Part shown: one piece after another, positions 2,865 to 63,126 of the stretch
Layout of the letters: every line of letters begins with the position of its first letter
Numbering within the stretch: the stretch's first letter is position 1
Source: an uncultured bacterium
GTDB lineage: Bacteria > Patescibacteriota > Patescibacteriia > Patescibacteriales > UBA12465
Direction of reading: 5' to 3'
NCBI GenBank assembly: GCA_942492765.1
Contig: OW818634.1
Span: 345,159-409,158 of the forward strand
DNA length: 64,000 nucleotides
Translations under genes and position numbers: made by a program
The notes under the pieces: model-generated
The model's input: the letters and a program-made list of their open reading frames with translations, nothing else
Told to the model about the DNA's origin: nothing
The model's database searches: none

Positions 2865-4673
2865 TTACGCGCGCTTTCGCAAAATAACGGCCATAGAAAC
2901 TGAAATTAAGACAAGAGCTCCGGCCAGCATTATCCATAAGATATTGCCTTCTGGGGCTAAACCGGTATTTGGCAGAGCTGGAACCGCGGTAGCTACGACG
3001 ACGGTTGCAATGGCTAAATCTCTCGCGATCAGACCATTCGCTTCGCCGGTAGCGATAGCGGTATTGGTCGTCGTTTCGGTAAGCTTGGATTGGCAAGTAT
3101 AGGTCCAGACCTCGGCCACATCTAATTTAGAATCCATATTAATATCGCCGGAAATATATTGCATCGGGCTGCATTTGTCATCAGTCAGAGTCACGTTGCT
3201 GAGCGCAACCGTTCCCGGGTTGCTTATCTTCTCGGTATAAGTGACCCAGCCGCCGCCAGCGAGTAAAGCGAGCGGTTTCGGCAGCTTAGTCACATGGATC
3301 AAAGGTGGCACTATCGGCAGGCCGACGACGACGTGAGCGCTAGCAATATCAACGGCGCTCAAGCCGTTAGCCCAGCCGGTCGCGACGACGGTGTTCGTAT
3401 GAGTCTCCGAGAGTGTCGTGGAGCAGGTATATTTCCAGGTCTCACTGACTTCCAGTTTGCTATTGCTATTCATATCCCCAGAAATCAACTTAATCGGGCT
3501 GCAAGTATCGCCAATCATCGTGATATCGGTAACTGGTACAGTACCGATATTGCGGAGAGTATAGGTATACTCTACCAAGCCCGGTCCGCTCGGCAGGGCT
3601 AGGGGATTAGGCACTTTCACTACCTCTATAAGCGGAGGAACTGGCGGAGCGATAACAGGCGAGCCGATATCATTGTTAGTGACGATACAGAATTTATTCT
3701 CTCCGGGCGAAAGATTGACATAGCCGGCGGCATCGCAGTCGCCAGAGAATGTCCGAGTATAATTAGGGCTGGTAGTTTCGGTAACGACATAGACGCCGGC
3801 TGGCGCTCGGAAAGTATTGGTGATACCGGAAACAACCGGAACGTCGCTAACAAACAAAGGAAAATCAGCTACAGTTTTGGTGCCGCCATTATCGTTAATA
3901 ACCACCTTGACGACGTTGATCGTCCCGGTGCGGATCGAACTGCCTCCAGAAGAAACAGCGGCGCAGGTCGGGCCAGTGATAGTATCGCTTAACAGAGTCA
4001 CATCGCCGCCGACAGCCAAAGCGCGGCCATCCAAAGTGACATTAGCGCCAAAATGAATACCTGTCCCGGCTAGAATCGTACCGACAAAAGAGCTGCCATT
4101 GATGGTCGCTAATGTTTCCACACGCCAGAAAACATCGCAAGCCCTGGCTCCGTTAATAAGATTAATCGAGCCGGAAGAAATCAAATCGCTGGAGGCTCTG
4201 AATATATAGACACCCGGACCGTCGAGAGTAAGTATGCCACCATTCAGCCGCCCAGCGCCAATATCATAGACTCCCGAAGAAAGAACTAAACCATCGAGAA
4301 CCGGACCTTGACTAGAGGTCAGGGGCTGGCTCGGAATGCCTGTCGTAAAGGCGGTGCTAGCGTCGGCTTGAACGCTCGGCGCTAAGATAGCCGTCGCTCC
4401 ATCGGGTCCGGTACCGTTCGTATCATATATCGTCCCTGCCACTTCCCCAGTCGTTAAGCCAGCATAATTAGTGCCGGCGGCATTCAATCCGACATCGCCG
4501 CTAATAACGGAGGTCGGAGAATTGGTAATAGCCGTATTGGCTAAAATTGAAAAACTCGCCGCTGCTCCGAGATCTGGCAACGTGGCCGCCGCCTGTACAG
4601 GAGCCAGTCCTGATAAGCCGAGCAAAAAAGCTACGGCTAGGGCGACTGCTAGAATCTTGTTATTTTTGTTCAT
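2865..4673 (-). CDS. LPXTG-anchored surface protein with an N-terminal ice-binding-like (DUF3494-type) beta-solenoid and two tandem ~115-aa conserved repeat domains
   Basis: It has a signal peptide and an LGAAASFSILA...ITN.....ISGDVG start typical of DUF3494. Two PPLI.V.K.P.PLAL...G...YT units follow. The C-terminus is LPNTG plus a hydrophobic stretch and RKRA. Confidence 0.8.
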   Translation of the reverse strand: MNKNNKILAVALAVAFLLGLSGLAPVQAAATLPDLGAAASFSILANTAITNSPTSVISGDVGLNAAGTNYAGLTTGEVAGTIYDTNGTGPDGATAILAPSVQADASTAFTTGIPSQPLTSSQGPVLDGLVLSSGVYDIGAGRLNGGILTLDGPGVYIFRASSDLISSGSINLINGARACDVFWRVETLATINGSSFVGTILAGTGIHFGANVTLDGRALAVGGDVTLLSDTITGPTCAAVSSGGSSIRTGTINVVKVVINDNGGTKTVADFPLFVSDVPVVSGITNTFRAPAGVYVVTETTSPNYTRTFSGDCDAAGYVNLSPGENKFCIVTNNDIGSPVIAPPVPPLIEVVKVPNPLALPSGPGLVEYTYTLRNIGTVPVTDITMIGDTCSPIKLISGDMNSNSKLEVSETWKYTCSTTLSETHTNTVVATGWANGLSAVDIASAHVVVGLPIVPPLIHVTKLPKPLALLAGGGWVTYTEKISNPGTVALSNVTLTDDKCSPMQYISGDINMDSKLDVAEVWTYTCQSKLTETTTNTAIATGEANGLIARDLAIATVVVATAVPALPNTGLAPEGNILWIMLAGALVLISVSMAVILRKRA

Positions 4674-5730: not shown

Positions 5731-7257
5731 ATGGAAAACTTAAGCATGTTGCAGACTTCCGGCCAGGATCGGAAAATCGCTAAATTTCTAGCTTCTAAGA
5801 TTGAATGTCTTATCGTTCTCTTAGGAATACCGACTTTTTCGCAGAAAATAACGACCGTTTTCGGCAACAGACAATATATAACCCTGGCTGAATTAAGCCA
5901 ATTATATTGCCGCCTGCCCAAAGAACGTCTCGACGAATTAAAACCAGTGCTCAGCCAGATCGCCAGCGATTTCATGGGCTGGCTTAATTTCTTCAAGACT
6001 TATCGCTTTAATAAAGCGATTAGGCCTCTAGCGGTCGGCGTCATGATAACATTCGCTAAGACCTTTGAAGAAAGGCGGCTGATGCTCGAATATCTGGAAG
6101 AAAAAGAAAGGAGCCTGGTGCTCGAAACTATGAAGATTGACGCCAAAGATTGGCCAGAAGTCATAGTTATCTTGAACCAAGAGTTCGACGCTAAACTATA
6201 TAAGATGGCTTTACGCTTAGCCAGACACGATAAAGAAAAGCTACTGGCTATGACCAGGCTGACAAATATCAGCAACCAAAGACGAGCCTATCTTTATAGG
6301 CGCCTATTAGAGATGGATGATTCGCTGACGAGCGAAGAATTTCTTTCTATGTATAGATGTTTAAATCATAAATCAATCATGCGCCCCCGGATCATCGCGA
6401 TCCTAGAGAAACAAAAAAATCCTTTTTCTTTCTGGTTTAGAATATACCAGGTGGAACTTCATAATAGCCGACTGAAAAATCTCGGCTGGAACAAGCTTAA
6501 GGATGTCGAAGTATCTCCTGAAATACTTGTAAAAACCTGCAATAACTGCAGAGACAAGAAATTCATGGGGCTGGCGGCTGCCAAGCTGCGAGAAATGAAA
6601 CTATCCCAAGAACATTGGGAAAAATTGTATGACGCAACGACGCTCAACGCGCCGCAAATACGAGAAACAATCCTAGATAAGCAGAGATTAGCGATATCCC
6701 TTGACGCCAGTCAAGAATCGATGAAAATCTCAGCCCTGCTATATATTAAGAGCATCCATTATTACCCGATCATCGCCGAAAATATCATGATCGGCATGAT
6801 AAATTCCCTACCCGAACGCCATAATCCGACCGGATTAAGGTTTGCGGCCGCAGAACTCCCTGCTCAGCATCCTAACCTTCCCAAGGCTTGGCCGCTTAAG
6901 GATAAGCGCCAAGACCCCCTAGGACTGCAAGCCGCGCTTAAAGAGCGTTCCGCTCGATTGAATATGATAAGAAGCCTAATAATAAAAAGCGACACGCATT
7001 CTTTTAAGAAAATAATGCTGGTGTTAGCTCCGAAAATTAGCGACCACGAAGAATGGATCAATCTTTCAAAACAATCCAAACCCTACCCCCACCTCCAAAG
7101 ATTGATCATCGAAGAATATAGAAAATTTTTCATCCAAGATTTCCGGTACAGACACATGTCATCTCCTTCCGCAAAAACCACTCCTACCGACCTGCGGAAT
7201 CGCGAGATTCGGAAAATCTGGGAAATAAAATTAAAAGAAGTAAAATTAGTTGCCTAA
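5731..7257 (+). CDS. hypothetical all-alpha cytoplasmic protein (508 aa), no recognisable family
   Basis: This is a long uninterrupted ORF in a visibly AT-richer stretch, followed by two hairpin terminators. I recognise no motifs in it. Confidence 0.5.
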   Translation: MENLSMLQTSGQDRKIAKFLASKIECLIVLLGIPTFSQKITTVFGNRQYITLAELSQLYCRLPKERLDELKPVLSQIASDFMGWLNFFKTYRFNKAIRPLAVGVMITFAKTFEERRLMLEYLEEKERSLVLETMKIDAKDWPEVIVILNQEFDAKLYKMALRLARHDKEKLLAMTRLTNISNQRRAYLYRRLLEMDDSLTSEEFLSMYRCLNHKSIMRPRIIAILEKQKNPFSFWFRIYQVELHNSRLKNLGWNKLKDVEVSPEILVKTCNNCRDKKFMGLAAAKLREMKLSQEHWEKLYDATTLNAPQIRETILDKQRLAISLDASQESMKISALLYIKSIHYYPIIAENIMIGMINSLPERHNPTGLRFAAAELPAQHPNLPKAWPLKDKRQDPLGLQAALKERSARLNMIRSLIIKSDTHSFKKIMLVLAPKISDHEEWINLSKQSKPYPHLQRLIIEEYRKFFIQDFRYRHMSSPSAKTTPTDLRNREIRKIWEIKLKEVKLVA

Positions 7258-7303: not shown

Positions 7304-7353
7304 AAAAACACCCGAGCGGGTGTTTTATTTTATGGGCGGAGAGGCAGGGATTC
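7304..7353 (-). repeat. partial duplicate of the tRNA-Ser(TGA) 3' end plus its terminator hairpin
   Basis: The 50-nt unit aaaaacacccgagcgggtgttttattttatgggcggagaggcagggattc closely matches 7411-7461. Its last 18 nt (7336-7353) are identical to tRNA positions 7444-7461. Confidence 0.7.
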
Positions 7354-7444
7354 ACCCCTCCGCTTCGCTTCGGAGTGTAAACTTCTCATCCCTGCTTTCA
7401 TCCACAAAACAAAAACACCCCTGCGGGTGTTTTCATTTTGTGAG

Positions 7445-7531
7445 CGGAGAGGCAGGGATTCGAACCCTGGGTCGACTTTCATCGACGACAGTTTTCAAGA
7501 CTGTTCCATTAAACCGCTCTGGCACCTCTCC
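7445..7531 (-). tRNA. tRNA-Ser (anticodon TGA)
   Basis: Reverse complement GGAGAGGTGCCAGAGCGG...ACAGT-CTTGAAA-ACTGT folds as a cloverleaf. It has a long variable arm, a CAGGG-TTCGAAT-CCCTG T arm and a 7-bp acceptor stem. Confidence 0.9.
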
Positions 7532-10383: not shown

Positions 10384-11763
10384 ATGGAAAAAACAATTTC
10401 AATAAACCTCAGCGGACAAAATTTCTTAATCGAAGAAGAAGCTTATGAAAAACTCGCGGCATATCTAGAGAGCATAAAACGCCACTGCGGCGCCGGCGCT
10501 GACTCCGTCGAAGTTATTGCCGATATTGAAAACAGCATGGCCGAAAAATTAAGATCATCTCTGACGCCCTATAAAGAAATAATCACTGTTAAGGACGTGG
10601 AAGCCCTGATAACGATTATGGGGACCATCGAAGATTTTAATCGTGAAGTTGGTAATTTCGATGAGGCAGACAGCGAAGCGGGCGGGACGGCCAAGAAAAT
10701 GAGGCGCAAGCTTTATCGCGATACCGACAATGCCGTCATCGGCGGCGTCGCCGCCGGACTAGGCGCTTATTTCGATATCGATCCGGTTCTTTTTCGCATC
10801 GTCTTCTGCGGTTTGATATTCGCCGCCGGCAGCGGACTTTTGGTCTATATTCTCCTCTGGATTGCGATGCCGGAAGCGAAAACCGCTCATCAAAAACTAG
10901 AGATGCAGGGGCAGACGCCGACTCTCGCTGCTTTTAAGAACCTGGCAAAAACCGGAAAGCAGCTCCAAGAGAATTGGAAAAAACGCTGGCGCAAGCGTTC
11001 GGCCTTGGAAAAAATTTTTAATCTCCCGCTACTCATCATTAATGGACTATTTTTCGCCTTAAAAAACATCTGGCAAGTTGTCTGGCCTGTGATAAAATTC
11101 TGTTTCGGATTATTTCTAACGGTTTTTTCCTTTATTGTTTTAGGTCTCACCGGGGTCGGCAGCTTGTTTTTACTTTTATATAACAGCCCTTCTTGTTACC
11201 TCTCTTTCATCCCTATTTCAGAAATGACTCGGGCTATTCCCTATACTTGGATTATCGTCTCCGGCTTTCTGTCCTTGGCCATACCGGCCATTCTCGTTCT
11301 GATCGGCGGCCTTGCTATCCTGCGCCGAAAAAATATCATGAATTTTGCCGCTGGATCTATCTTGGTCGGAATCTGGATGGCAGCCGGGATATCGTTCTGC
11401 GCTTTGGGATTGCGCTATTACCCGGAATTAGAAAAAAAATTCAATGATTATCCTTTAACCATTGAATCGGAAAAACTAATCGATATGACCGGAATAAAAG
11501 AAGTGGAAACGAACAGCTATTATATAAATGTCGCGGTCAGCGCCGCCACCAGTACCCCGGCCACTCTAAGCGGACGCGCGGTTGATTTGGAAAATATCGC
11601 CATCAGCCGCGAAGGGGAAAAATTAATTCTTAAAGAAAAGCCTTTCCATTTTGATGGCATCTGCTTTGATTGCCATCTACGGCCCGTGACATTACAGATC
11701 GCGACCAGCTCGACTCTAAAAATAAACCCCGACACTGCTAGCTCCACCGAAAAAGCCCTCTAA
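10384..11763 (+). CDS. PspC domain-containing membrane protein
   Basis: The PspC motif RKLYRDTDNAVIGGVAAGLGAYFDIDPVLFRIVF is followed by multiple TM segments. Pairing with an upstream PadR is common. Confidence 0.8.
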   Translation: MEKTISINLSGQNFLIEEEAYEKLAAYLESIKRHCGAGADSVEVIADIENSMAEKLRSSLTPYKEIITVKDVEALITIMGTIEDFNREVGNFDEADSEAGGTAKKMRRKLYRDTDNAVIGGVAAGLGAYFDIDPVLFRIVFCGLIFAAGSGLLVYILLWIAMPEAKTAHQKLEMQGQTPTLAAFKNLAKTGKQLQENWKKRWRKRSALEKIFNLPLLIINGLFFALKNIWQVVWPVIKFCFGLFLTVFSFIVLGLTGVGSLFLLLYNSPSCYLSFIPISEMTRAIPYTWIIVSGFLSLAIPAILVLIGGLAILRRKNIMNFAAGSILVGIWMAAGISFCALGLRYYPELEKKFNDYPLTIESEKLIDMTGIKEVETNSYYINVAVSAATSTPATLSGRAVDLENIAISREGEKLILKEKPFHFDGICFDCHLRPVTLQIATSSTLKINPDTASSTEKAL

Positions 11764-16847: not shown

Positions 16848-17756
16848 TTATTTAGCGAATAGCCGATTGAGCCAGCCGAACAGGCTAGCTCCTTGCTGGG
16901 CGTAACCCAAAGAATTTTCTATTTCTAGATCAGCCTGTTCAAGCAGCTTTATCTGTTCTGTCAGCTGCTGCTGATCGCCTTGATTAGCGAGCATATTCTT
17001 GACTTGATTCAATTGCTTTATCTGTTCGCGATTCTGTTCTAATGTCTTTTCAGCATTATTTATCTCCCCATAATTAGGGCCTAAGAAGAACTTAGCCAAG
17101 GCGCTCCGGCTCTGGACTTTAGCCAGGCTCGTTTCCAATTTCTCTTGATTCTGCGTCTGAGCCTGAGCAATCGTCTTTATCTGCTGGCCGATTCCGCCGT
17201 TTCTTTCGGAAATCTGCAGCATCGTCTGCACCGCGCTGGCTACCTGACTCCTTCTCTGCTGAGCGACAGCCGAACCCGCTTGATTCTCAGCCGGAGTACT
17301 AGTTCCGCTGCCATCCTGCAGCTTCTGTTGCGCTTGCTGCCTGGCCTGAATAGCAGAGTTCGTCCCTGATTGAGAAGCGTTTCCGGTCTGCATCTGCGCG
17401 TTATTCCCTGCCTGATTCTGGGCATTAACGCCCGTATTAGCCGTTTGAGTTTGGACCTTGACTTGGCCGCCGACCCCGTTGCCATCTTGGAGTTTCTGTT
17501 GAACCTGTGTCTGGACCGACGCGGCGGCTCTAGGGGCAGCCGGGTTAGCGACCTCGCTACTTTGGATCCGCTCTTCGGTCATCATCTGGACGTTCGCCTC
17601 CGCACCCGTATCAGCGGTCTGAGCCTGAACTTGAGCCTGGGTCTGGGTCTGCGTCTGCGTCTGCGTGCCTGCGCCGCTTGAACCAGCGGCGTAAACGCTG
17701 CCGGCTAGAGCGAGCGTCACCGCAATAGCGCTGACGATTAAAAGATTTTTTCTCAT
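16848..17756 (-). CDS. secreted Q/T/A-rich low-complexity protein with a C-terminal coiled coil
   Basis: It has a signal peptide (MRKNLLIVSAIAV..A), a TQTQTQTQTQAQVQAQ tract, two ~45-aa Q-rich repeats ending QQKLQDG.G, and a coiled-coil tail. Confidence 0.55.
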   Translation of the reverse strand: MRKNLLIVSAIAVTLALAGSVYAAGSSGAGTQTQTQTQTQAQVQAQTADTGAEANVQMMTEERIQSSEVANPAAPRAAASVQTQVQQKLQDGNGVGGQVKVQTQTANTGVNAQNQAGNNAQMQTGNASQSGTNSAIQARQQAQQKLQDGSGTSTPAENQAGSAVAQQRRSQVASAVQTMLQISERNGGIGQQIKTIAQAQTQNQEKLETSLAKVQSRSALAKFFLGPNYGEINNAEKTLEQNREQIKQLNQVKNMLANQGDQQQLTEQIKLLEQADLEIENSLGYAQQGASLFGWLNRLFAK

Positions 17757-17834
17757 ATTTTTTCCCATTCGGCTCGCTGGGCGGCTAGGCGCCAAGCGAA
17801 CATCATGGCTTAATTAACAACGTTTTATAAGATA

Positions 17835-17843: not shown

Positions 17844-17870
17844 TATCTTATAGACCCCTGCCAAAAAATA

Positions 17871-17898: not shown

Positions 17899-18504
17899 TC
17901 ATTGAAGTCCGATCTTATTTATGAAATCGCATAATTCCCGACCAATCGTTTTCTGCCAAAAATCATCTTGTTCTTCCGGCGTCATCTCGGCGACGTATCG
18001 ACCTGTTTCTGGACAGATCTGGATAGATTCCAGGGGGTAGTCTTTGATTGTCTTAGGGCTAGGTTGGCTGACGAAGAGGCGCGGCGATTTCATGATCATT
18101 TCCTCTGTCTGGCCGTCAGGATATGCCAAGCATATTCCATATTCCCAATAGCCGCCGATGCGGCCGCCGAGCTTTTCTACTAATCCAGAATAATGAGCTA
18201 ATACTTCTGAATCGGACGCCCGATCAGACCGACCGCCAATGCGACGCACATTAAGACCGGGCTGCTGCTCAAGCGCTAAGCCGTCGAGATAAAGGGCGTT
18301 ATCAGTCGAAAGAACTGGCGACCCGATAGCCGCGGCGTAAAAAATCGCCTTGCTTCTGGCGTTTTCTAGGGCCGTCGACCCGTCCTCTTTTATTTCGGGA
18401 AATTCCTGATCTGGCAATCCTTGAATTTCTAGATTAAGGGACTTAAGGGCACAGTTTATCTGCCAAATCTTGGCGCTGTTCTTGGTTCCGATGATTAGAG
18501 CCAT
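17899..18504 (-). CDS. non-canonical purine NTP pyrophosphatase-like protein (Ham1/RdgB family)
   Basis: It starts I.GT.N..K and has E.G.T..ENA..KA and S.DN.L.LDGL...PG motifs in Ham1 order. Confidence 0.55.
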   Translation of the reverse strand: MALIIGTKNSAKIWQINCALKSLNLEIQGLPDQEFPEIKEDGSTALENARSKAIFYAAAIGSPVLSTDNALYLDGLALEQQPGLNVRRIGGRSDRASDSEVLAHYSGLVEKLGGRIGGYWEYGICLAYPDGQTEEMIMKSPRLFVSQPSPKTIKDYPLESIQICPETGRYVAEMTPEEQDDFWQKTIGRELCDFINKIGLQ

Positions 18505-18579
18505 AAAGGCGGAGAGCTTGGTATTATATTGGAACGCTCGTTAATAATAAAGTTATTGATATTATAGCTTTGGACAAAT

Positions 18580-18612
18580 AAAAAAGGAAGCTCGATGGTT
18601 TTGAACTTCCTC
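18580..18612 (-). terminator. intrinsic terminator after the lipoprotein gene
   Basis: The stem aggaag/cttcct is followed by a T run on the minus strand. Confidence 0.45.
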
Positions 18613-18634
18613 TTAAGAACGTGAACAAATTAGT

Positions 18635-19279
18635 TTAGTACTTTACAATCCCAATTTCGTTTTTAGGGACAATTACGGTGCATCCCCCAATCGGACTGTC
18701 GTGCCACATTATACCCAGCATCATTCTGGTTTCTCCTCCTAACTCTGGAACTACTATTATGGCAACCAACTCTTCCGTCAGATTTCTTTCATATAGAATT
18801 TTACTTTCATCCCTTTTACAAAAGAAGACAATATCTTTTTTAGAATTTTTTATAAAATTCCTATTAGACAGGCAAAATTCCACAACCTGATTCTGAGTCA
18901 ACCATTTCCATTCGTTGTCCAGGGGCAAAGAATAAAAAACGTCCTTCATTTTTTCCGCATTTTCTATTTGATATGCGGCAACTTTTTGCTCGGGAGAGGG
19001 TAATCCGGGGTTTTGACTCATGCCTAATGCTTCATATTCAGCCTTCCATCCGGTATGCCAGGGATAGGCAACCGTTTCCATGGAATTTTGCACGTTTACT
19101 GTGCCGTTCAAAGAACGAAGCAGGCTATTGTCCAGAGTAGCTTCAGGCATCAATTTTGTTTCCACAGATTTCTCTGTTTTTACTGTTGTTGCCGTAGTTG
19201 AGCGATGGCCGGATTTGCTTTCGCAAGATGAAAGAGCGAACAAGCAAACGCATACAAATACAAATGTCAGATTTTTCAT
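18635..19279 (-). CDS. hypothetical lipoprotein (214 aa)
   Basis: The signal peptide has the lipobox L-S-S-C (MKNLTFVFVCVCLFALSSC). Composition is AT-rich. I recognise no family. Confidence 0.55.
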   Translation of the reverse strand: MKNLTFVFVCVCLFALSSCESKSGHRSTTATTVKTEKSVETKLMPEATLDNSLLRSLNGTVNVQNSMETVAYPWHTGWKAEYEALGMSQNPGLPSPEQKVAAYQIENAEKMKDVFYSLPLDNEWKWLTQNQVVEFCLSNRNFIKNSKKDIVFFCKRDESKILYERNLTEELVAIIVVPELGGETRMMLGIMWHDSPIGGCTVIVPKNEIGIVKY

Positions 19280-19763
19280 GATTTTTCCTTTTTTTGTGAA
19301 AGTTAATATTAATTTGATTAATTACTAAATCGGCCTATTTTTAGACAAACTTGGTAATTAATCAAATATAACCTTGTTTTTCAACGAACCATTCAATAAA
19401 CATATTATAGCATATCAGTCAATACTTGTCAAGAGTAAGAAAATATGGCCTATCTCCTAAAAATCAACGTAAATCTGCACGTGCATTTACGTCTATCCCG
19501 CTAGTTTAAAATACCTTTGACCATTCTTTCAGCCGAAAATGGTCAAAACCTGTTTTGCTATAGTCTACAGGTAAATCTTCAGATGAAGTTTCCTGTAAGT
19601 CGGTTTGTTAATATTAAACAAAATATGGTCAATTTCTTGACCTAAATCTTGACCTAAACTTTGTCCAATACCGTTCTGTTATTATTAGATAAATAATACT
19701 TATTTTCTTCCCCTAAACTTACCCCGGAACTTTCGGGAACTATGATTTGCTAATGTAAGATAT

Positions 19764-19839
19764 GGCCGAGGTTCCGTTTTTTTTCTTTCTTCGGCGGATC
19801 CCCCGTAGGGGGAGCCGAAAAAGAAAAACGGACCCGGCC
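19764..19839. other. long imperfect hairpin (~76 nt)
   Basis: The arms ggccgaggttccgttttttttctttcttcggc and gccgaaaaagaaaaacggacccggcc flank a central ccccc-gta-ggggg. Confidence 0.4.
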
Positions 19840-20019
19840 TATATATATTATTAATAGTTAATATATTGACTTGATTATATGCACACTTAAGAACCGGCTC
19901 CCTATATATAATTAACTTGACCATACGCACACACCTAGCCGTCATCACGAAGATTCAACAAAATAATCAACAATATTTAATGGTTATCTTTGTTAAAAAG
20001 AACAGCTAATTAGAAATAT

Positions 20020-21567
20020 ATGAAATACATCCTTTACGCTCGTAAATCCTCGGAAGATAAGAGCAAACAAATCCTATCCCTGGAAAGCCAAGTTTCAGAA
20101 ATGAAAAAACTAGCCTTTAGTTTAGGGTTGGTTATTGATTTGGTTTATACCGAGAGCAAATCTGCCAAACTGCCAAATAATCGGCCGATATTTTTGGAAA
20201 TGGTTAAGCTTTTGGAAAGCGATAACTCGGCCGAGGGCTATGGCATATTGTGTTGGAAAATTGACCGCCTCTCTCGTAATCCAATAGATAGCGGAAAGAT
20301 TCAATGGCTACTCCAACAGGGCAAGATTAAGGCCATTCAGACGAGCGATAGACAATACTTGCCGAGCGACAATGTGCTACTTTTAAACATTGAAGGCTCA
20401 ATGGCTAATCAGTATATTTTGGACTTATCAAAAAATGTTAAGCGTGGAATATTAACCAAGATAGAAAAAGGACTGTGGCCGAACTTCGCCCCGATTGGTT
20501 ATCTAAACGACGGGAAAGGTGGAATCGTGATTGATAAGATAAGGGCGAGATATATCAAGAAAATATTTAAGTTATATTCTACGGGAAACTATACAATGAA
20601 AGAATTGGCTAATTTAATGTATGATAAAGGCTTTAGAAGTCGGAGCGATATTAAATATCATAAAAGCAAAATCTATAAACTAATAAATGATTCTTTCTAT
20701 TGCGGAATTATGAGGTTCCACGGCAAAGAATACGAGGGCAAGCACGAAACGCTGATTTCTAAAAAATTATACGCCGACTGTCAAAAAGTAATGACAGAGA
20801 AACAGCACCCCAAAAAGAAACAACCCCATTTTCATTTTAGAGGATTAATGATTTGCGCCAATTGTGGCTGTCTGCTAACAGCCACACGCAAGAAAAAGAG
20901 ATATGTCTATTACTACTGTACCAATGGCCGAGGCGGATGTAGCGAACATAATCACTACTTAACTGAGAAAGAAGTTATTAATGCCCTGTCTGGCATATTT
21001 GACCGAATGTATATTGACGAGGACGAAATAGAGCGAATGCACGATAACAGCGTTGAATTATTAATTAATCATAATCCGGATAACCAAGAATATTTGGAAT
21101 CTAAAAATCACCTCTTAAATGAGATTAGGAAAAGAGAAAACAGAAAAGAAGAATTATTTAATCTTCGGTTAGACAAGAAGATTAGCTCGGAAGATTATGA
21201 GACAAAAGAGGCTATTATAAAAAACGAGATTAAGGAGTTTAACGATAGTCTGAAAAAACTAGAAAACGAGCAAGAAGTCGTCTTAACTAAAGAGGCTTTG
21301 GAACTCACTAAAAAATTCTTTTTAGCCCCAAAATCAATGAAAAAAGCGTTTTTCAAAATTAGTTTGGACGATAAACAGAAAATGCTAAATCAGATACTTT
21401 GGAACTCCGAAATTGAAAACAAAAAATTAGCTAAGATTAACTTCAAAGAACCCTTTGAAACCCTAGCTAATTGCTCTGAAAATCACGATATTGACAAACT
21501 GCGGAGAGAGAGGGATTCGAACCCTCGGTACCTTGCGGTACACACACTTTCCAGGCGTGCGCACTAG
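20020..21567 (+). CDS. large serine recombinase (resolvase catalytic domain, recombinase domain, zinc ribbon, coiled coil)
   Basis: The start YARKSS...K...SLESQ carries the catalytic Ser region. The zinc ribbon is C.NCGC...19...YYYCTNGRGGC, followed by a long K/E-rich coiled coil. The last 22 codons are antisense to the tRNA. Confidence 0.9.
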   Translation: MKYILYARKSSEDKSKQILSLESQVSEMKKLAFSLGLVIDLVYTESKSAKLPNNRPIFLEMVKLLESDNSAEGYGILCWKIDRLSRNPIDSGKIQWLLQQGKIKAIQTSDRQYLPSDNVLLLNIEGSMANQYILDLSKNVKRGILTKIEKGLWPNFAPIGYLNDGKGGIVIDKIRARYIKKIFKLYSTGNYTMKELANLMYDKGFRSRSDIKYHKSKIYKLINDSFYCGIMRFHGKEYEGKHETLISKKLYADCQKVMTEKQHPKKKQPHFHFRGLMICANCGCLLTATRKKKRYVYYYCTNGRGGCSEHNHYLTEKEVINALSGIFDRMYIDEDEIERMHDNSVELLINHNPDNQEYLESKNHLLNEIRKRENRKEELFNLRLDKKISSEDYETKEAIIKNEIKEFNDSLKKLENEQEVVLTKEALELTKKFFLAPKSMKKAFFKISLDDKQKMLNQILWNSEIENKKLAKINFKEPFETLANCSENHDIDKLRRERDSNPRYLAVHTLSRRAH

Positions 21568-21586
21568 ACCACTATGCGACCTCTCC
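21502..21586 (-). tRNA. tRNA-Ser (anticodon GGA)
   Basis: Reverse complement GGAGAGGTCGCATAGTGG...CACGC-CTGGAAA-GTGTG folds as a cloverleaf. It has a long variable arm, a GAGGG-TTCGAAT-CCCTC T arm and a matching acceptor stem. Confidence 0.9.
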
Positions 21587-62901: not shown

Positions 62902-63035
62902 ATAAAGAATTTACCAGACAGAGAGGATAAGACAAGTTTGAAAAGATTATTTCTTAAGTCTCATGCCTGCATGCTATTCCGAAACAATAAACTTTCTATC
63001 AAAAATAGCTCCTATTCAGGGGCTATTTAAATCTG

Positions 63036-63126
63036 CGGAGAAGGAGGGATTCGAACCCTCGATAGGGGTTTACACCCCTATAACAGGTTAGCAACCTGCC
63101 GCTTTCAGCCGCTCAGCCACCTCTCC
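63036..63126 (-). tRNA. tRNA-Ser (anticodon GCT)
   Basis: Reverse complement GGAGAGGTGGCTGAGCGG...GCAGG-TTGCTAA-CCTGT folds as a cloverleaf. It has a long variable arm and a GAGGG-TTCGAAT-CCCTC T arm. Confidence 0.9.

Follow-up and report, generated by a model that had tools for sequence, protein, structure and literature searches.

A probable 3-kb integrative element at the 3' end of a Patescibacteria tRNA-Ser gene, with its attachment site inside the serine integrase gene

Why does the open reading frame (ORF) of a large serine recombinase (LSR) run on in antisense through a tRNA gene, and where does the mobile DNA that carries it begin and end? These questions are raised by a 64,000-nucleotide (nt) stretch of contig OW818634.1 (assembly GCA_942492765.1, positions 345,159 to 409,158 of the forward strand) from an uncultured bacterium of the Patescibacteriota, hereafter the window, in which the LSR ORF is antisense to 67 nt of tRNA-Ser(GGA) (21501-21567). 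An initial annotation made from the letters alone had described this overlap and a minimal AT-rich element carrying the recombinase. Both descriptions hold: the tRNA was recovered by ARAGORN and by Rfam, and the integrated element with a bona fide LSR is borne out by composition, Pfam domains and fold. We find a discrete 3-kb insertion at the 3' terminus of the tRNA gene, flanked by a short direct repeat, with the same ends in other genomes and unoccupied targets in relatives. Positions 18517-21508 are very probably an integrated small site-specific integrative element of a Falkowbacteria-like lineage of Patescibacteria, whose attP spans the 3' end of the integrase gene and whose target is the tRNA 3' end. 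The features that delimit it are as follows.

18509-18516, plus strand: attL core GCGGAGAG; the nucleotides that originally ended the host tRNA-Ser gene at its 3' side, now displaced (tRNA nt 67-74 in reverse complement)
18517-18581, plus strand: left end of the element, with the attP right arm CTTGGTATTATATTGGAAC (18517-18535, kept across loci) and the excised-state integrase tail AWYYIGTLVNNKVIDIIALDK followed by its stop codon (18579-18581)
20020-21567, plus strand: LSR ORF, 515 amino acids, in the form read in the integrated state
21501-21508, plus strand: attR core GCGGAGAG, direct repeat of 18509-18516, with the crossover inside
21501-21586, minus strand: tRNA-Ser(GGA), the integration target (attB); ARAGORN, Rfam 52.9 bits; intact, CCA not encoded

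So delimited, the element is 2,992 bp long, one copy of the 8-bp core included, and its guanine-cytosine (GC) content is 0.361 over 18517-21508, compared with 0.467 and 0.464 in the 10-kb flanks. The octamer GCGGAGAG occurs five times in the window, so the repeat alone is weak evidence, and the status of its two copies as junctions comes from comparison across genomes. DNA similarity to the regions upstream of related LSR genes in many genomes starts at 18509; the left end (18509-18592) is 96% identical to locus L005, and GCGGAGAG-CTTGGTAYYATATTGGAA follows unrelated host DNA, mostly terminator hairpins, in L002, L003, L004, L005, L007, L013 and L015. A terminator hairpin in the host flank is expected, since the site lies downstream of a tRNA. 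A sister element, L095, is 86% identical over 18509-19575, lipoprotein gene included, and the match ends exactly at 18509, where again a terminator hairpin stands. The true left junction is the 8-nt match at 18509-18516, which the initial annotation had noticed but discounted in favour of a boundary at 18570-18580; the latter positions are inside the element. The argument for that boundary, a TATAAT on the minus strand at 18561-18566, fails as well: the hexamer sits within the conserved element end, forms part of the excised-form integrase tail and is kept in relatives with unrelated flanks.

The element is flanked by a Ham1-like gene (17899-18504) and a DsbA-like gene, both as first described. 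The ATG of the Ham1-like gene stands 4 nt from the left junction. We considered this gene as a part of the element and ruled it out, as its GC content is host-like and in the sister element the end falls on the identical base, next to another flank.

On the right side, L032, a contig from the same metagenome-assembled genome (MAG) as L095, starts inside an LSR gene with 86% DNA and 88% protein identity to that of the window; the ORF of this gene continues into tRNA-Ser(gga), beyond which lies a DsbA gene whose product is only ~50% identical to the window DsbA. The search for empty sites in relatives, which had been proposed as a check, was successful in two loci, L090 (DsbA 85% identical) and L091 (71%). 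Both have the order LigA-GatC-GatA-DsbA-tRNA-Ser(gga), with a native trailer and terminator after the tRNA and no LSR there, and their homology to the window spans the whole tRNA and stops at 21499. The empty attB junction reconstructed for the window, of the type 18508 joined to 21501, reads from the Ham1 start ...CATAAAG/GCGGAGAGAGAGGGATTCG... An exact-match search for this empty site in metagenome contigs returned nothing, a scan of metagenome contigs for DsbA-like proteins found no relatives, exact look-up of the window recombinase and DsbA-like protein gave zero records, and neither the element nor any of its blocks occurs a second time in the window.

Downstream of the unoccupied tRNA-Ser(gga) in L090 (8880-8990) and L091 (8868-8900) there are GTTCCAAAGT...GTTCGAACC-like words that resemble an inverted attP right arm. 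These may be old att remnants, or chance.

To place the crossover we relied on the family as a whole, comprising 80 genome loci, mostly from Falkowbacteria and other Patescibacteria MAGs, with LSR protein identities of 36-92%, of which 74 were evaluable for tRNA overlap, and 117 full-length proteins among the 120 best homologues listed. The LSR ORF overlaps an antisense tRNA in 55 of the 74 loci, by 14-315 nt (Ser 33, Gln 9, Val 4, Arg 3, Met 2, Leu 2, Pro 1, Asp 1). The comparison of homologue C-termini, also proposed at the outset, went in favour of the initial annotation: past a conserved ...(L/V)RR the tails match the identity of the downstream tRNA, and they differ where no tRNA is present. 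The antisense T-loop peptide D[SL]N[PSLQH] is found in the tails of 88 of the 117 full-length homologues, and integrated-state tails range from a few residues to ~100 amino acids, depending on the tRNA. In 23 attL/attR pairs the identical core is 4-13 nt long and always includes the same four positions, GCGG, GTGG, GCTC or GCTG, which are tRNA nt 74 to 71 and comprise a single trailer base, the discriminator and the two final bases of the acceptor stem (~21501-21504, GCGG, in the window). As the cores always cover tRNA nt 71-74, the crossover is at the extreme 3' end of the tRNA. If this register is conserved family-wide, strand exchange in the window would occur at the same four nucleotides, and it must fall within GCGGAGAG. 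The tRNA is thus host-derived except for a few identical terminal bases, and the LSR codons past the crossover are host DNA. The window tail, ERDSNPRYLAVHTLSRRAH and a stop codon, is the host tRNA read antisense and differs from the excised form from about residue 496 onwards. The suggestion that the tRNA supplies the C-terminus and stop codon in the integrated state thus stands, with the crossover in the first few bases of the overlap.

Many of the element-bearing MAGs are titled 'uncultured Gammaproteobacteria', 'Planctomycetales' or 'Acholeplasmataceae' (L002, L005, L016 and others), and L069, with an LSR 36% identical, is on a contig labelled as a Thermoplasmatales archaeon. These labels likely reflect placeholder or mis-binned taxonomy and not true host range.

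What does the integrase gene look like when the element is not integrated? The reconstructed join of 21508 to 18517 gives a circle with the attP junction ...GACAAACTGCGGAGAG/CTTGGTATTATATTGG... and an ORF of 517 amino acids that ends in ...DIDKLRRAWYYIGTLVNNKVIDIIALDK and a stop codon; attP is laid out as a left arm, ...GATATTGACAAACT, inside the coding sequence, the core GCGGAGAG and the right arm CTTGGTATTATATTGGAAC. Five junctions without a tRNA (L085-L089) read GATATTGACAAWCT-GCGGAGAG-(GG)TGGGACGnnnTTGGAAC, and the arm motif TGG[GT]AC....TTGGAAC is kept in these attP-type junctions, which could be free or tandem forms, and in more than 25 loci. The tails of homologues without a downstream tRNA read RRGWD[AE]LGT... 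or RRVRD.IRTE... In L047, L055 and L010, an LSR gene has no tRNA behind it; what comes next, oriented alike, is a hairpin and/or the gene for a rolling-circle replication protein (Rep), together with a second LSR gene or fragment. We take these loci to be tandem arrays, with the integrase gene of the first copy extending into the element that follows. In P0016 two spacer bases are missing and the tail is in another reading frame, with the DNA motif TGGGACGTAGTTGGAAC intact. Because the motif survives this frame change, its conservation is that of an att arm and not that of a peptide. The core at tRNA nt 71-74 and the attP-type junctions together therefore place attP within the ORF of the integrase, and the tail encoded by the tRNA is present only while the element is integrated. 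All LSR domains stay on one ORF after integration.

Upstream of the single LSR of L018, three left-end motifs, GCGGGGAGAG-[CT]GGGACGATGTTGGAA, are located ~1 kb apart (2154, 3240 and 4194), with a terminator-like hairpin before each. They could represent a stack of miniature derivatives that lack an integrase, or else tandem copies that have decayed.

It should be noted that several observations weigh against this interpretation. L095 and L032 belong to one MAG but to different contigs, and it is by inference only that we pair them as the two ends of a single element. The left-flank synteny with the closest empty-site relative, L090, stops at 17849 and not at 18509, and the Ham1-like gene is absent there, which makes a strict three-way alignment of attB, attL and attR impossible for this genome. 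In the reconstructed attP, dyad symmetry is weak (no better than 12/26) and inconsistent between elements, and the central dinucleotide is therefore not pinned down. The short LSR-carrying contigs that were checked for circularity had no terminal overlaps, and no circular or excised form was seen among them. Finally, the window copy has neither a Rep nor a candidate recombination directionality factor (RDF).

Exactly where the left-flank synteny of L090 ends, at 10930-11073 on the minus strand of that locus, there is an LSR 3' remnant of ~50 codons with an attP-type tail (...NLRSVRDYVRTEKRENTNDFK and a stop codon). It is 2.1 kb from the unoccupied tRNA-Ser(gga), with an aminotransferase gene and a 159-amino-acid ORF between them; the window has the Ham1-like gene at the equivalent place.

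For the chemistry, the exact crossover dinucleotide, present-day mobility, the role of a conserved hairpin described below and the transfer route between cells, we infer the following from sequence and from what is known of related enzymes. The recombinase would join attP with the very 3' terminus of the tRNA gene (tRNA nt 71-74), which takes in the discriminator, the terminal pairs of the acceptor stem and a single trailer base. As in other serine integrases, recombinase dimers on attP and attB would cleave within GCGG with a 2-bp stagger, rotate their subunits and religate, giving attL and attR. The tRNA would stay intact because the exchanged bases are identical in attP and attB, and only its 3' trailer would be replaced on integration. 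With the trailer and terminator swapped for integrase-antisense sequence, 3' processing of the tRNA must tolerate the new trailer. The right half of attB, the acceptor/T-stem of the tRNA (GCGGAGAGnnAGGGA), is similar to the right arm of attP (GCGGAGAGGGTGGGA); the left half, the tRNA trailer, varies between hosts, so that recognition may rest largely on the tRNA half. In the excised or tandem state the integrase ORF ends in the element's own left end (...LRRAWYYIGTLVNNKVIDIIALDK and stop), and in the integrated state it runs antisense into the tRNA (...LRRERDSNPRYLAVHTLSRRAH and stop). We consider the tRNA-encoded tail to be an incidental, unstructured by-product of the position of attP.

In the window and in relatives, target tRNA genes have no encoded CCA, and a single C follows the discriminator (in the window at 21498-21501 and 18505-18509).

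The enzyme belongs to the large serine recombinases by domain content and fold, and is far from characterised members. Pfam identifies Resolvase (PF00239, 7.9e-15), Recombinase (PF07508) and Zn_ribbon_recom (PF13408) domains, and PHROGs classifies the protein as an integrase (6.5e-69). Across 20 homologues, R8, S10, D82, R83 and R86 are invariant, as are the zinc-ribbon cysteines C279, C282, C300 and C307. An AlphaFold2 (AF2) model built on 20 homologues contains catalytic, recombinase and zinc-ribbon domains and coiled-coil helices at 334-444 with flanking beta-strands, in agreement with the zinc ribbon and coiled coil of the initial annotation. The tRNA-derived tail (residues 495-515) has a pLDDT below 50 in this model. 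Foldseek matches the model to full-length serine integrases (9y66, Bxb1 9iu2, PhiC31 9tep and LI Int 4kis; E=1e-20 to 1e-11); by sequence the solved structures give only weak matches, to N-terminal domains. Identity is below 32% to any LSR in the phage and plasmid collections searched, and IMG/VR contains only four distant LSR matches.

The interior of the element, between its left end and the integrase gene, has the following features.

18580-18610, minus strand: terminator-like hairpin GGAAGTTC...GAGCTTCC with a T-run, downstream of the lipoprotein gene; putative, as read from the sequence
18635-19279, minus strand: cargo gene in a variable slot, 214-amino-acid predicted lipoprotein (signal peptide end ...LFALSSC)
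19272-19433, minus strand: conserved block B with a perfect sigma-70-type promoter, TTGACA-17-TGnTATAAT (19432-19404), 12/12 with an extended -10
19760-19846, no strand assigned: long conserved hairpin, apical stem CGGCGGATCCCCC-GTA-GGGGGAGCCG on a T-run/A-run lower stem; DNA fold -29.4 kcal/mol, z=-7.0
19898-20019, plus strand: conserved region upstream of the integrase gene, putative integrase promoter and leader, with DNA similarity to L001, L002, L003, L004, L006, L007, L015 and L047

The lipoprotein gene and the 740-nt non-coding stretch of the initial annotation are both upheld, as a lipoprotein-type signal was found and 19280-20019 has no ORF conserved at the protein level. The 214-amino-acid ORF has no Pfam or PHROG match; its homologues in Patescibacteria are 45-88% identical, two of them in chromosomal contexts without an LSR and one in the sister element L095. 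In relatives other small genes fill the slot, with position and strand unchanged; several of them have a signal or lipoprotein leader, and others encode DUF3800, NYN or IS110 transposase proteins. The hairpin at 18580-18610 was not listed by a simple hairpin scan because of a stem mismatch. Block B is 77-88% conserved in L003, L004, L005, L009, L010, L011, L013, L014, L015 and L054, and its promoter faces the cargo gene and the left end, outward relative to the host flank. This conserved consensus promoter would drive the single variable cargo gene; we speculate that it may also restore expression downstream of the tRNA, here that of the Ham1-like gene.

The 51-nt core of the long hairpin is ~92% identical in more than 25 loci, with compensatory changes in 3 of 10 consensus pairs. 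The hairpin, which has a GC-rich apex, is highly conserved between elements with integrases only ~50% identical; besides the window, it is found at L025 8746-8793, L041 8742-8789, L042 ~3711-3785 and in over 20 further loci. Since the stem runs into an A-run in both directions, it is not a canonical terminator on either strand. In Rep-bearing relatives the hairpin is immediately upstream of the rolling-circle Rep gene, and we regard it as a candidate replication origin or other cis element. Such a Rep, of the HUH type, lies between the hairpin and the integrase gene in 37 of the 80 loci (tblastn); in L042 the ORF at this place matches PF23343 REP_ORF2-G2P and phrog_3419. The window contains no Rep or Rep remnant by tblastn, and its subclade (L001-L009, L013-L015) is without Rep. 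Since distant members carry the HUH Rep by the hairpin, the family looks like integrative rolling-circle plasmids, of which the window subclade has lost Rep. Speculatively, the hairpin would serve as a rolling-circle origin, Rep-less elements would be replicated in trans, and transfer between cells could occur by natural transformation. Across 19280-20019, similarity to relatives extends over all frames, which indicates conservation at the DNA level and no coding signal; a hidden small gene (RDF or Xis) was sought there and no conserved small ORF was found, and Rfam reported nothing over the non-coding region besides the tRNA.

L042 also has, at 846-1481, a cyclodipeptide synthase homologue (PF16715, 3.3e-27) at most ~5 kb upstream of its Rep and LSR module, which may or may not be cargo.

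If the tRNA-encoded tail is not an incidental by-product, the swap of the integrase C-terminus could be a functional switch. Here, after integration, the convergent integrase gene would yield an mRNA complementary to a highly expressed tRNA, and the protein would lose its native tail; the integrase would thereby be silenced or altered in the integrated state, providing directionality without a separate RDF. In favour of this reading, attP is kept within the ORF across LSRs 36-92% identical and eight tRNA types, the excised-state tail remains in frame for ~22 codons to a conserved stop, and its end, ...NNK.[VI]DIIALDK and stop, is common to elements of the window type and elements that target tRNA-Val, with only 59% identity between their integrases; moreover, no RDF-like gene is seen in the minimal elements. 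However, the conserved part of the tail acts as a DNA motif, which survived the 2-nt frame-shifting spacer change in P0016, and its variable positions are not restricted to third codon positions. The tRNA-derived tail is predicted to be disordered, and its length, set by whichever tRNA lies downstream, looks incidental. We therefore hold a functional switch to be possible but unlikely.

We think it quite unlikely, too, that the window copy is an immobile relic of one past integration, which no longer excises, replicates or transfers and in which the recombinase ORF is simply still open. The LSR ORF is intact with all catalytic residues present, and the att arms, promoter and hairpin are intact and conserved. 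Furthermore, the sister copy, ~86% identical, is in a distantly related host (DsbA 50% identical), which requires fairly recent horizontal movement. These points are to be set against the absence of Rep from the window, of an RDF candidate or conserved small ORF from the non-coding region and of circular junctions from the short contigs, and against the decay seen in relatives: the LSR 3' remnant of L090, the internal stops in the LSR ORFs of L012, L017, L019, L027 and L033, and the stacked left ends without integrase in L018.

The initial annotation had hinted at a phage or an integrative and conjugative element (ICE), and the LSR architecture is indeed typical of phage and ICE integrases. 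That a prophage or ICE has decayed here down to its integrase end is nevertheless highly improbable, as boundaries on both sides confine the element to 3 kb, and its relatives, of 2.5-8 kb, carry an HUH rolling-circle Rep and no capsid, tail or conjugation genes. PHROGs matches only the integrase within the 2,992 bp, with no virion, lysis or conjugation genes, and the low identity to all LSRs of phage and plasmid collections and the four distant IMG/VR matches point the same way. A crossover deep in the tRNA (anticodon or T loop), with an element that itself carries and donates two-thirds of the tRNA at the 3' side, in the manner of many islands with tyrosine integrases, would account for the 67-nt overlap and for an RDSNP that is conserved in homologues and could be misread as element-borne, but is scarcely credible given that attL keeps only 8 nt of the tRNA, attP-type junctions have no T-arm, tails after RR track local tRNA identity, homology to the unoccupied orthologous tRNA extends through the whole gene to 21499, and cores are as short as 4 nt.

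Returning to a small integrative element with attP in its integrase gene, we consider it of an ordinary kind, as an integrative element borne by an integrase; its configuration is unusual, has apparently not been described before and is widespread within a single phylum. More broadly, and as a doubtful suggestion, there may be a large undescribed Patescibacteria clade of self-contained serine-integrase modules with att inside the integrase gene and the universally conserved acceptor/T-stem end of tRNAs as attB, in which integration rewires the integrase through a new C-terminus and convergent, antisense pairing with the tRNA and so makes directionality independent of an RDF, with Rep possibly acting in trans. 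If true, this would be a bacterial serine counterpart of the archaeal suicidal integrases discussed below, and elements of 2.5-3 kb consisting of one enzyme, a promoter-driven cargo slot and an origin-like hairpin could persist and spread.

Serine integrases are seen as targeting protein-coding or intergenic sites, and the targeting of tRNA genes as a habit of tyrosine integrases. The phage-type large serine integrases (PhiC31, Bxb1, Listeria A118/LI Int and TP901-1) have the same domain order as the window enzyme, and short att sites with a small common core. Unlike in those systems, the target here is a tRNA 3' terminus and not a protein-coding gene, attP is inside the integrase's own ORF, the elements are 2.5-8 kb long and no RDF was identified. 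Williams reportedly defined in 2002 the sublocation classes of tRNA-targeting tyrosine integrases, such as those of P4-like islands and phages. Such tRNA islands share with our element the site at the tRNA 3' end, an integrase gene adjoining the tRNA, restoration of the tRNA by identity between attP and attB, and a displaced fragment at the far end. They differ in enzyme family and mechanism, and the cores of the window family are much shorter (4-13 nt), as expected from the 2-bp-staggered crossover of serine recombinases. In mycobacteriophages of clusters G, N and P, Broussard et al. are said to have described in 2013 an attP inside the repressor gene, so that integration by a tyrosine integrase truncates the repressor as a regulatory step. 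The likeness is in an attP within a coding gene whose C-terminus is changed; here, the gene is that of the serine integrase itself, and a regulatory role is only putative. Like rolling-circle plasmids and single-stranded DNA phages with a G2P/ORF2-type HUH Rep, family members carry a PF23343 Rep by a conserved hairpin, whereas the window copy has none. We know of no described combination of a G2P/ORF2-type Rep with a tRNA-targeting LSR.

The closest parallel for the position of att is found in archaea. The SSV-type 'suicidal' integrases (SSV1, pTN3, pT26-2) have att within the integrase gene and a tRNA target, their ORF is changed by integration, and integrase and att form a compact module (PMC8371274). 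In the same review, integrases with att in their own gene, which are tyrosine recombinases (PF16795), are stated to be exclusive to archaea (PMC8371274). The window LSR has att inside its ORF in the same way; however, the SSV-type enzyme is a Phage_integr_3 tyrosine recombinase whose gene is split on integration into Int(N) and Int(C), neither of them active, whereas the window enzyme is a bacterial serine recombinase that exchanges ~20 last codons and keeps its domains intact. The tycheposons of Prochlorococcus are small tRNA-associated integrative elements with cargo, and 27 of 937 are described as having an LSR (bioRxiv 10.1101/2020.12.28.424599). They are set apart from the window family by their host phylum, their mostly tyrosine recombinases and their primase/helicase-type replication modules, and att inside an LSR ORF is not reported in the portions of that preprint consulted here.

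The full-text literature searched, the coverage of which is incomplete so that an earlier description is possible, described neither this Patescibacteria family nor any LSR that has attP at the 3' end of its own gene. The family breaks two generalisations, namely that tRNA targeting is a habit of tyrosine integrases and that att within the integrase gene is exclusive to archaea, and it does so in a phylum with very few described mobile elements. With one recombinase, ~1 kb of cis sequence and a one-gene cargo slot, these elements are among the smallest integrase-based integrative elements, which makes them attractive as minimal models and a possible chassis for genetics in Patescibacteria. Their attB is essentially the tRNA 3' end (GCGGAGAG..AGGGA), which is short, conserved and present in every genome, and is of interest for integrase-based genome engineering. 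A practical consequence is that hundreds of 'recombinase family proteins' in databases have spurious tRNA-antisense C-termini (...RDSNP...), with a true free-form C-terminus that differs.

Further potential targets are present in the window. Its tRNA-Ser(tga) (7444-7531) and tRNA-Ser(gct) (63035-63126) have GCGGAGAG-type ends and are unoccupied; these tRNA species are occupied by related elements elsewhere (L002, L007, L034, L035). An 18-nt direct repeat, GCGGAGAGGCAGGGATTC, is found at 7336-7353 and 7444-7461, the former being an orphan copy of the tRNA-Ser(tga) 3' end 108 nt past the gene, which is on the minus strand. A near-identical terminator hairpin precedes each copy, there is no recombinase gene nearby, and the ORF at 5731-7257 has no Pfam match. 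The orphan copy looks like the scar of an earlier integration, or a small duplication. Elsewhere in the window, 16848-17795 on the minus strand encodes a secreted-looking protein of 315 amino acids with long Q/T/A-rich low-complexity repeats (TQTQTQTQAQVQ...), at a local GC peak of 0.57-0.59.

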